Assembly: GCF_003334405.1 (NCBI RefSeq)
Contig: NZ_QOWM01000013.1
DNA length: 64,000 bases
DNA from: Escherichia coli
GTDB taxonomy: Bacteria > Pseudomonadota > Gammaproteobacteria > Enterobacterales > Enterobacteriaceae
Reading direction: 5' to 3' (one strand)
The notes beneath the pieces were generated by a model. It saw nothing but the letters and a program-made list of their open reading frames with translations, did not search any database and was not told the DNA's origin. Numbering within the stretch: the first letter of the stretch is position 1; every line of letters begins with the position of its first letter. The position numbers and the translations under genes were made by a program. Positions 40,059-41,741 of the stretch are shown here, piece after piece.

Positions 40059-40292
40059 TCGCTAAATAATACAGCAACCTTTAATAATCTTCTGCTGAAT
40101 AAAGATTATCTCATATATTAATTTTATGAGATTTTTTTAGGATTATATCAAGGAGAAGAAACAAACTTATTAAGCTAGAATAGCCACGGGTGCTTGAGAC
40201 TGTTTGTCTCAGGTATTCACCGAAAGGCAGACAGAGAAAAGCCCCACCTGACTATAAATCAAAGTTTGTACTGACCCCAAAAAGTTGGACAG

Positions 40293-41144
40293 TTAAACAC
40301 GAGGCATATAGGTCTGATTCCGATATTCAATTGGAGTCAGACCTTTTAATTTCAGGCTAATTCTTCTGCTGTTGTAGTATTCAATATATTCCGTAACAGC
40401 ATCCTTCAGTTCGCTTATATTACTGAACTCATCAAGATAAAAACACTCCGACTTTAAGGTTCCAAAGAAACACTCCACCACAGCATTATCCAGACAATTG
40501 CCTTTTCTGGACATGCTTTGTTTAATACCATGTTCTTTAAGGATATTTTGATATCTTCTCATACGATACTGCCATCCCTGGTCAGAGTGCAGAACAGGAT
40601 GCTCGTGAGGATTAAGCTTTTTGAATGCCTGATCGAGCATATTCTCAACCATGTTCATCACTGGTCTTTCCGAAAGGCTGTAAGAAATAACTTCGTTGTT
40701 GAAGAGATCTATTACTGGAGACAAATACAGCTTGCGCCCATTGACTGCAAATTCAGTAACATCGGTAACCCACTTCTCGTTTGGCCGCGTAGCCTTGAAA
40801 TCTCTTTGGAGAACATTAGGGGCGGTTTGCCCTACCTCTCCTCTGTAAGAGCGGTATCGCTTGACCTTAATCGCTGCTTTAAGTGAGAGGGTTCCCATCA
40901 GGCGCTGAACAGCTTTATGGTTAATCTGTTTCCCTTCTCGATGAAGAGACAGCGTTACCCTACGGTATCCGTATCGGCCTCTATTCTCGTGATAAATCTC
41001 ACTAATACGCTTTTTAACGTCCGCATACTTGTCAGGCTTGCTGAGAGCCTTTAGATGATAATAAAACGTACTGCGCGGTATCTCCGCAGCCCTGAGAAGC
41101 TCATCAAGAGGATAAAACTGCCTTAGCTCGTTGAGTACTTTCAC
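40293..41144 (-). CDS. insK: IS150 transposase OrfB (DDE integrase domain)
   Basis: 283-aa ORF; recognised as IS150 InsK. Confidence 0.9.
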
Positions 41145-41662
41145 TTTTTCGTGGGATGAGCTAAGGCTTTCAGCTTTTTTAGATACATAAGCCGCGTTTC
41201 AAGAAATCGAACTTGCCTTTCAAGATCCTCAATGCGTCGGTCTTTTGACAGCTCCAATGCTGATGCCGCTTTTTCTGGATCAACTGATATTGCAATGTTT
41301 CTTTTGGTGCCAATCTTGAGCGCGCGTAAACCAGCTTCTCCGCGCTCTTCATAGACCTTCAGCCACCTGGCTACAGAACCACTACCAGCAAGCATAAAGT
41401 GAGCAGCAGCCTGATTAAGGGACATGTGCTGCTCGATCACAGCTTTCACGACCTTAATACGCAACTCTGGATCAGCACTAACGCCTTTAGGTTTGGGAAT
41501 TAAACCTTTTTCTCCATGTTTTTCATAGAGGGCAACCCATGTCCTGACCTGGGTTCGGGGGACACCAAAACGTGCCGAGATGATCCTGTAACCATCATCA
41601 GTTGTGAAGTAGTGATTCACGACTTCAAGGCGCTTTTCAAAAGGGTATTTTGGCTTTGACAT
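41141..41662 (-). CDS. insJ: IS150 transposase OrfA (HTH DNA-binding)
   Basis: 173-aa ORF; overlaps insK and contains the frameshift heptamer near its 3' end. Confidence 0.9.
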   Translation of the reverse strand: MSKPKYPFEKRLEVVNHYFTTDDGYRIISARFGVPRTQVRTWVALYEKHGEKGLIPKPKGVSADPELRIKVVKAVIEQHMSLNQAAAHFMLAGSGSVARWLKVYEERGEAGLRALKIGTKRNIAISVDPEKAASALELSKDRRIEDLERQVRFLETRLMYLKKLKALAHPTKK

Positions 41663-41741
41663 ATTAGGGGCTATTCCATTTCATCGTCCAACAAAATGGG
41701 TGCAGTACATACTCGTTGGAAATCAACACAGGAGGCTGGGA

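Follow-up and report, generated by a model that had tools for sequence, protein, structure and literature searches.

The chromosome of Escherichia coli K-12 carries a copy of the insertion sequence (IS) IS150 upstream of hokA, a gene for a toxin of the Hok family. This raises the question of what the element has left of the hokA/mokA/sokA type I toxin-antitoxin locus, and of why it lies at that particular position. We examined both in a 64,000-nucleotide (nt) stretch of E. coli DNA (NCBI RefSeq assembly GCF_003334405.1, contig NZ_QOWM01000013.1), called the window here, whose coordinates are used throughout; its glyS-to-cspA segment, 40015-42080, matches E. coli K-12 BW25113 with 100% identity. 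Our data indicate that the region is very probably the chromosomal hokA/mokA/sokA locus in its K-12 state, decayed and inactivated in two steps. The IS150 disruption of K-12 hokA/sokA is an already known, annotated feature: the window locus is K-12 hokA/sokA itself, the MG1655 copy is published as inactivated by IS150, and inactivation by an insertion element, which a preliminary description of this DNA had treated as established, is indeed on record (PMC12214031; PMC11551753). The description of K-12 hokA/sokA is that of Pedersen and Gerdes 1999 (Mol Microbiol 32:1090), cited in PMC12214031, PMC11551753 and PMC1635323.

What IS150 has left of the hokA leader

TGTACTG begins at 40267 and CAGTACA closes at 41709, a span of 1443 bp, and other IS150 copies from E. 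coli genomes and plasmids align exactly to positions 253-1695 of the glyS-to-cspA segment, that is, to the same limits. The terminal inverted repeats are imperfect and of the TG...CA type (TGTACTGACCCCAAAAAGTTGGAC and TGTACTGCACCCATTTTGTTGGAC), and the length of about 1.4 kb is that of an IS3-family element. The insJ and insK open reading frames (ORFs) overlap at 41141-41144 and are linked by a programmed -1 frameshift, as in the IS150 group, and RefSeq labels the element in BW25113 [quoted passage not shown]. The preliminary description called the edge at 41709 the right end, which holds in window coordinates; for the element itself it is the left end (IRL, the left inverted repeat, proximal to insJ), and the right inverted repeat (IRR) lies at 40267. 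Its spacing of 32 bp between IS150 and the hokA ATG at 41742 was correct, as was its account of an intact ORF and ribosome-binding site. A Shine-Dalgarno sequence, AGGAGG, stands at 41730-41735, and the ORF (41742-41894) encodes 50 amino acids (aa), in keeping with the Hok toxin length of about 50 aa; its score against the HokA equivalog NF007290 is 129.7 bits (cutoff 89). The product, WP_001135732.1, has the identical accession in SFAD3, a strain with an uninterrupted locus. The Shine-Dalgarno sequence reads AGGAGG in the K-12-type allele and AGGGGG in the uninterrupted and MP1-type alleles examined (41733, A versus G; the MP1 type is described below).

The state of the leader was examined by fusing 40015-40266 to 41710-42080 and aligning the product with uninterrupted alleles. 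The joined flanks were clearly those of a hok leader, and the match was near-perfect, broken only by a 38-bp gap that coincides with the junction; the proposed in silico join does not rebuild mok and sok. The absent segment, GAGGCCCCTCTATGCATAGACACCATAAGGTTAGCCTC, is present in every uninterrupted allele examined, and the IS150 flanks read GTT on the left and TAC on the right, without a target-site duplication. As read from this alignment, the K-12 state of hokA is an insertion plus an adjacent deletion, not a simple insertion. A simple insertion, in which the leader is otherwise complete and precise excision (40266 to 41710) restores hokA, mokA and sokA, is practically untenable: both flanks are >97% identical to uninterrupted alleles outside the junction, but the alignment refutes it, as the joined flanks lack both the 3-bp duplication and a piece that holds the mokA start and the Sok target hairpin.

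The Rfam model RF01794 ("sok") describes the hok leader in the sense orientation, starting at the leader 5' end and stopping at the hok AUG. Its match in the window begins at 40188 on the + strand and scores 70.1 bits (gathering score 59), with an alignment that is confident only over model positions 1 to ~80 (to 40266), the remainder being forced into IS150. In two element-free genomes (SFAD3 and an O157:H7 strain) it scored 120 bits over its full length, the leader there measuring 152 nt and running up to the hokA ATG. The 79 nt at 40188-40266 are identical to the first 79 nt of intact alleles (L001 and L002 in our collection of loci, from 774). Of the region 40059-40266, where the remainder of the leader had been placed, the part 40188-40266 is therefore leader by RF01794, and 40059-40187 is an AT-rich spacer with the presumed promoter just upstream of 40188; its candidate -10, TAGAAT, was not detected by a consensus promoter scan. 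On the other side of the element, 41710-41741 is free of an intact promoter and of a sok gene, and by homology holds only the sokA -35. The earlier proposal was borne out in that IS150 parts hokA from the promoter and the 5' leader; the 38-bp loss destroyed the start of mok and the sok gene.

In intact alleles (L001 863-1075), the mokA ATG is in frame with hokA, 20 codons upstream, and gives a 70-aa extended product. The mokA Shine-Dalgarno sequence and ATG sit within the missing 38 bp, and the window has no mok reading frame beyond the last 10 codons of the extension, which are fused to the IS150 tip. Where this remaining frame enters the tip, a 64-aa ORF starts with GTG at 41700 and has no evident ribosome-binding site. 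When aligned with R1-type leaders that had been reconstructed from plasmid loci, the lost 38-bp stem-loop proved homologous to the R1 hairpin GAGGCAUCCCUAUG...GGAUAGCCUC. From what is known of R1, we take the Sok RNA to start inside this hairpin, with its -10 in the 3' arm (TATCCT in R1; TAACCT in hokA) and its -35 presumably 17 bp further towards hok (TTGCGC in R1; TTGATT in hokA). The sokA -10, start site and 5' recognition part would all have been deleted with the 38 bp, leaving no sok antisense gene. The sokA -35 (41721-41726) and the sokA 3' part (up to 40266) are now 1443 bp apart, on opposite sides of IS150. The intact hokA mRNA (L001:774-1140) pairs nt 1-6 with nt 358-363 in both its minimum-free-energy and centroid folds (z = -7.3). 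Both partners of this tac-fbi pairing, by which full-length hok mRNA is held inert, are present in the window, split by IS150 (1.4 kb), and do not lie on one native transcript.

A proposed two-step history for the K-12 allele

We propose that IS150 first entered the leader at GCCTC-T-[TAC], the 3' base of the hairpin with the mokA Shine-Dalgarno/ATG and the Sok target, its right end (IRR) towards the hairpin. In a second step, of which the window contains the end state, an IS150 adjacent deletion would have removed the left TAC, the duplication copy beside IRR, along with the 38-bp hairpin. In the window, the promoter region and the 79-nt leader now read into the IS150 end, and the hokA ORF and its Shine-Dalgarno sequence are kept, lacking both the native promoter and the mokA start for translational coupling. 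Neither a regulated hokA mRNA nor SokA RNA should then be able to form.

A plasmid hok locus (L006) displays the undeleted geometry that this history predicts for K-12, with GCCTCTTAC abutting IRR and IRL abutting TAC, 30 nt short of the hok ATG. IS150 occupies the homologous position there and is flanked by a clean TAC duplication; its junctions are GGATAGCCTCTTAC against IRR and IRL against TACTGCGC. The K-12 right junction, IRL against TACTCGTTGG, lies 32 nt before the ATG and represents the same site and orientation as in L006. Adjacent deletions without a duplication are documented for this element: in three populations of the long-term evolution experiment, 14 of 68 IS150 events were of this kind (PMC11708052).

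To place the allele in the species, junctions were scored at >=80% coverage in 5426 complete E. coli genomes. The left junction of the K-12 allele was present in 1643 genomes and the right one in 1667 (~30%), and their carriers include isolates from people, pigs, poultry, ducks and frogs. On account of this frequency and range of hosts, the K-12 allele is natural and old, not a laboratory artefact. The hokA leader was uninterrupted in 2790 genomes. Most of the remaining genomes had a second allele, the MP1 type (L004 1060-2502), in which IS150 points in the same direction as hokA and whose left junction was found in up to 1132 genomes (~20%). Here the element lies between ATCAAAG and TGAGGC, bordered by a clean AAG duplication. 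The insertion falls at the 5' base of the mok/Sok-target hairpin, 75 bp before the ATG, and leaves the hairpin intact. In the MP1-type allele the 3' outward promoter of IS150 would face mokA/hokA, and the locus may have been rewired rather than simply killed. The MP1-type site is occupied in several different hokA hairpin alleles, which suggests repeated hits. The MP1-type allele was also seen among loci L005 and L009-L011.

Some observations weigh against the two-step history. The precursor junction (hokA hairpin, TTAC, IRR) was found among the 5426 genomes, at the same coverage, only in the plasmid hok locus and in no chromosomal hokA. The T at 40266, at the left junction, is unaccounted for by any single contiguous deletion from the precursor, and the order and mechanism of the two steps are for that reason not proven. 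Starting from the MP1-type allele or a two-copy palindrome, or invoking one contiguous deletion, fails to reproduce this extra T, and these derivations of the left junction were rejected. Silence is, moreover, something that we infer: hokA would be silent and harmless in K-12 because no regulated hokA mRNA and no SokA RNA could be made. By eye, a perfect TTGACA (41656-41661), 17 bp and TTTCAT (41679-41684) face hokA from inside the IRL end; this arrangement, its -10 lacking the conserved A, could give weak outward transcription.

That arrangement bears on a rival explanation, in which an IS150 promoter drives unregulated or newly regulated expression of hokA in K-12. IS150 does have an outward-facing promoter (PMC11101190), and the hokA ORF is conserved, with a Shine-Dalgarno sequence that is strengthened relative to the AGGGGG of other alleles. 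The known promoter, however, sits at the 3' end of the element, which here is 40267 and points towards glyS, and the transposase genes, read from the minus strand, diverge from hokA. Because of these two features, read-through from IS150 into hokA, for which the preliminary description had suggested looking, is not expected. The consensus promoter scan of 39950-42100 returned three sites, fewer than in shuffles, with no sigma-70-like site before hokA on the + strand; it neither confirms the hokA promoter (PhokA) nor shows an outward promoter. Unrepressed Hok would also be toxic without Sok, yet ~30% of genomes carry the allele, and a paper on hok RNA editing in K-12 names hokC, hokD and hokE transcripts, not hokA (PMC12214031). 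Overall, we regard activation of hokA by IS150 as very unlikely and favor the two-step inactivation. A terminator-like hairpin with a T-rich tail was noted at 40310-40354 (+), just inside the IRR end of IS150; transcripts that start at the orphaned hokA promoter would end there after ~160 nt.

A candidate IS150 target motif

During these studies, IS150 right-end junctions were gathered by exact match to an internal 38-mer, a search pattern that contains no flank sequence. Species-representative genomes, metagenomes, viral contigs and the loci already collected together gave 50 distinct sites; the genome-contig scan contributed 6 loci and the metagenome scan 69 loci, the bulk of the site sample. 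Read outward from the IRR tip, GAGGC occupied positions 5-9 in 28 of the 50 sites, and (G/T)(A/G)GGC stood at the same offset in a further 5, so that 33 of 50 have a fixed-offset motif. GAGGC was shifted by one or two bases at 6 sites, and the duplication was 4 bp in the two of these with both ends known. The IRL side showed no comparable signal. Among 15 distinct two-ended sites, the K-12 copy included, 10 had a 3-bp target-site repeat and at least 2 more had a 4-bp repeat.

Hok-family leader hairpins made up 30 of the 50 sites. In most of these a Hok ORF follows 72-92 nt past the IRR end, and 21 of the 30 had GAGGC at the exact offset. The same was true of 7 of the 20 non-hok sites (binomial P about 6e-17), and 11 of the 20 had the relaxed form. 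Both hairpin bases were hit in at least 3 hok paralogues, always with IRR towards the hairpin. IS150 was likewise observed at either hairpin base in F-type plasmid hok/sok loci downstream of psiA, IRR facing the hairpin both times (L006 2543-3985 and L007 2519-3961; duplications TAC and CCA, respectively). In a pig isolate, E41, the element interrupts cas1e of a type I-E CRISPR-Cas system at a GAGGC site with a TTC duplication (L008 1821-3263): GAAAGAGGCTTTCC.

De novo insertions in evolved E. coli B were considered by reading the positions of PMC5419217 on REL606. The hokC/nhaA insertion at 16,972 (GCCTC-G-[GGT]) fits the motif, those at hokC/nhaA 16,989 ([CAC]TCGGGGC) and brnQ 388,543 ([CGA]CTGAGGC) both fit within one base, and brnQ 388,275 does not fit. 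The other positions were discarded, as on REL606 they fall in unrelated genes (cusA, chaB, trg, hflC and tsr) and the reference differs. Compared with NC_012967 (L096-L102), most coordinates in Table 3 of that paper are off the named genes, and its rows or reference appear shifted or swapped; for example, "trg/mokB 1,272,468" lands in chaB and "chaA/ldrC 1,464,061" in trg.

Based on these sites, we lean towards the view that IS150 has an orientation-specific target motif, GCCTC-N-[3-4 bp duplication] followed directly by IRR, that its position at hokA is no accident, and that hok loci are its main natural landing pads. Read outward from IRR the motif would be NNNN-GAGGC-Y-W-Y-C-C, and we think it somewhat probable that it is built into the conserved mok Shine-Dalgarno/Sok-target hairpin of every hok-family leader, once per arm. 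With similarly modest confidence, the IS150 3' outward promoter would always face the hairpin, and K-12 hokA would be a motif-directed 3'-arm insertion whose hairpin was lost later. The best motif match inside IS150, ATTAGGGGCTATTCCATT at 41663-41680, is in the element's own left end. The likeness of the motif to the left-end box ATTAGGGGCTATTCC (41663-41677) suggests, as a speculation, that transposase or InsJ binding may guide the choice of target. Within 41663-41684 the best match, which adjoins the insJ start, is overlapped by the TTGACA-17-TTTCAT arrangement.

The position of IS150 could instead have been fixed by drift, or by selection against a useless toxin, with no target preference at all, and recurrent hits of mobile elements, IS150 among them, at hok loci have been read as adaptive or neutral loss (PMC5419217; bioRxiv 10.1101/527788). 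We consider this unlikely: GAGGC is at a fixed offset on the IRR flank of non-hok as well as hok sites, the laboratory insertions at hokC (16,972) and brnQ (388,543) fit the motif, and the K-12 right junction matches the motif-predicted place and orientation exactly. Earlier reports describe IS150 insertions in sokA and sokE (PMC11551753), IS150 "hotspots" at the hok and ldr loci (PMC5419217), the closeness of hok homologues to hotspots of mobile elements (bioRxiv 10.1101/527788), and an IS150 insertion preference without stating which (PMC10379815). A statement of the GAGGC motif or of its link with hok leaders was not found in the searchable literature, older primary papers being outside its reach, and we do not claim newness.

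Features of the locus and comparison with known systems

Table 1. Features of the interrupted hokA locus, in window coordinates.
Feature	Position	Strand	Remark
glyS ORF	37945-40014		From the ORF list
glyS intrinsic terminator	40032-40058	+	Hairpin 40032-40051 plus T-run; left limit of the intergenic region
Candidate hokA promoter -10, TAGAAT	40176-40181	+	6 nt upstream of the leader 5' end; -35 poor; putative
hokA mRNA leader, 5' 79 nt (tac/ucb-type region)	40188-40266	+	Now orphaned upstream of IS150
sokA 3' remnant	40225-40266	-	Left limit approximate; complementary to the leader upstream of the lost hairpin
IS150	40267-41709	-	IRR (3') end 40267, IRL (5') end 41709; no target-site duplication
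insK (orfB, DDE catalytic part of the IS150 transposase)	40293-41144	-	NF033516 (IS3-family transposase model), 350.3 bits, profile positions 93-369
insJ (orfA, helix-turn-helix part)	41141-41662	-	NF033516, 50.6 bits, profile positions 1-89
hokA leader, last 32 nt	41710-41741	+	Holds the sokA -35 (minus strand) and the hokA Shine-Dalgarno sequence
sokA -35, TTGATT	41721-41726 (reverse complement)	-	R1 equivalent of AATCAA is the same 17 bp from the -10 equivalent
hokA	41742-41894	+	Intact Hok-family toxin ORF, 50 aa
3' fold-back (fbi-like) partner, GCACCC	41950-41955	+	Pairs with the leader 5' GGGUGC (40188-40193); mapped via alignment

RefSeq annotates a 23-aa ORF, ysaE, antisense to hokA at 41871-41942 (-), where it overlaps the hokA 3' end; strains whose hokA locus is intact or of the MP1 type have an annotated counterpart ("hypothetical protein"). 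Directly downstream of hokA and convergent with it, the cspA thermoregulator mRNA (RF01766) was matched at full length at 42026-42453 (-) with 500.8 bits. Sub-gathering Rfam matches (STnc370, rnk leader and others) fell on the glyS and cspA terminators and were ignored.

The hok/mok/sok locus of R1 is a type I toxin-antitoxin system that acts by post-segregational killing. Like it, hokA has a GCGCUUGAGG-type tac end at the 5' side, an AGCCCC box, a GAGGC...AUG...GCCUC hairpin, the spacing of the sok -10/-35 equivalents, a toxin of about 50 aa and, in the intact allele, pairing of the mRNA 5' and 3' ends. Unlike R1, hokA is chromosomal and its mok start is in frame with the toxin gene (the 70-aa extension), R1 mok being in another frame, and in the K-12 copy the hairpin and the mok start are gone and sok is no longer functional.

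IS150 has been found in sokE in XL1-Blue and >400 natural isolates (PMC11551753), and de novo at hokC, hokE and mokB in evolved E. coli B (PMC5419217). In these cases, as in K-12 hokA, the same element lies in the leader/antisense region of a paralogous hok locus with the toxin ORF intact. They were reported as simple insertions, whereas K-12 hokA has also lost flanking DNA and the duplication. In that respect it resembles the IS150-del events of PMC11708052, with a deletion on one side of IS150 and no target-site duplication; unlike those deletions, which ranged from 14 bp to 49 kb and were seen in real time, the hokA deletion is one of 38-42 bp deduced from strain comparison.

Some other IS3-family elements are target-selective: IS911 inserts beside inverted-repeat-like sequences, and IS1397 and ISKpn1 insert in repetitive extragenic palindromic (REP) sequences. 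The IS150 motif is like these in that it appears to be fixed in offset and orientation-specific, often lies in a palindromic hairpin, and has its best internal match in the element's own left end.

The disruption of hokA itself matters little, as it is a documented K-12 pseudo-locus, although its exact anatomy now replaces the picture of a simple insertion. The parts that merit a further look are the IS150 target motif and the two-allele picture of the population. The motif, if true, would explain the repeated IS150 hits on hok/sok loci in natural isolates and in evolution experiments, as well as why about half of sequenced E. coli genomes are without an intact hokA leader. Such "parallel" mutations would then not need to be adaptive, and IS150 would become an IS3-family element in which the sequence-guided choice of a target can be tested.

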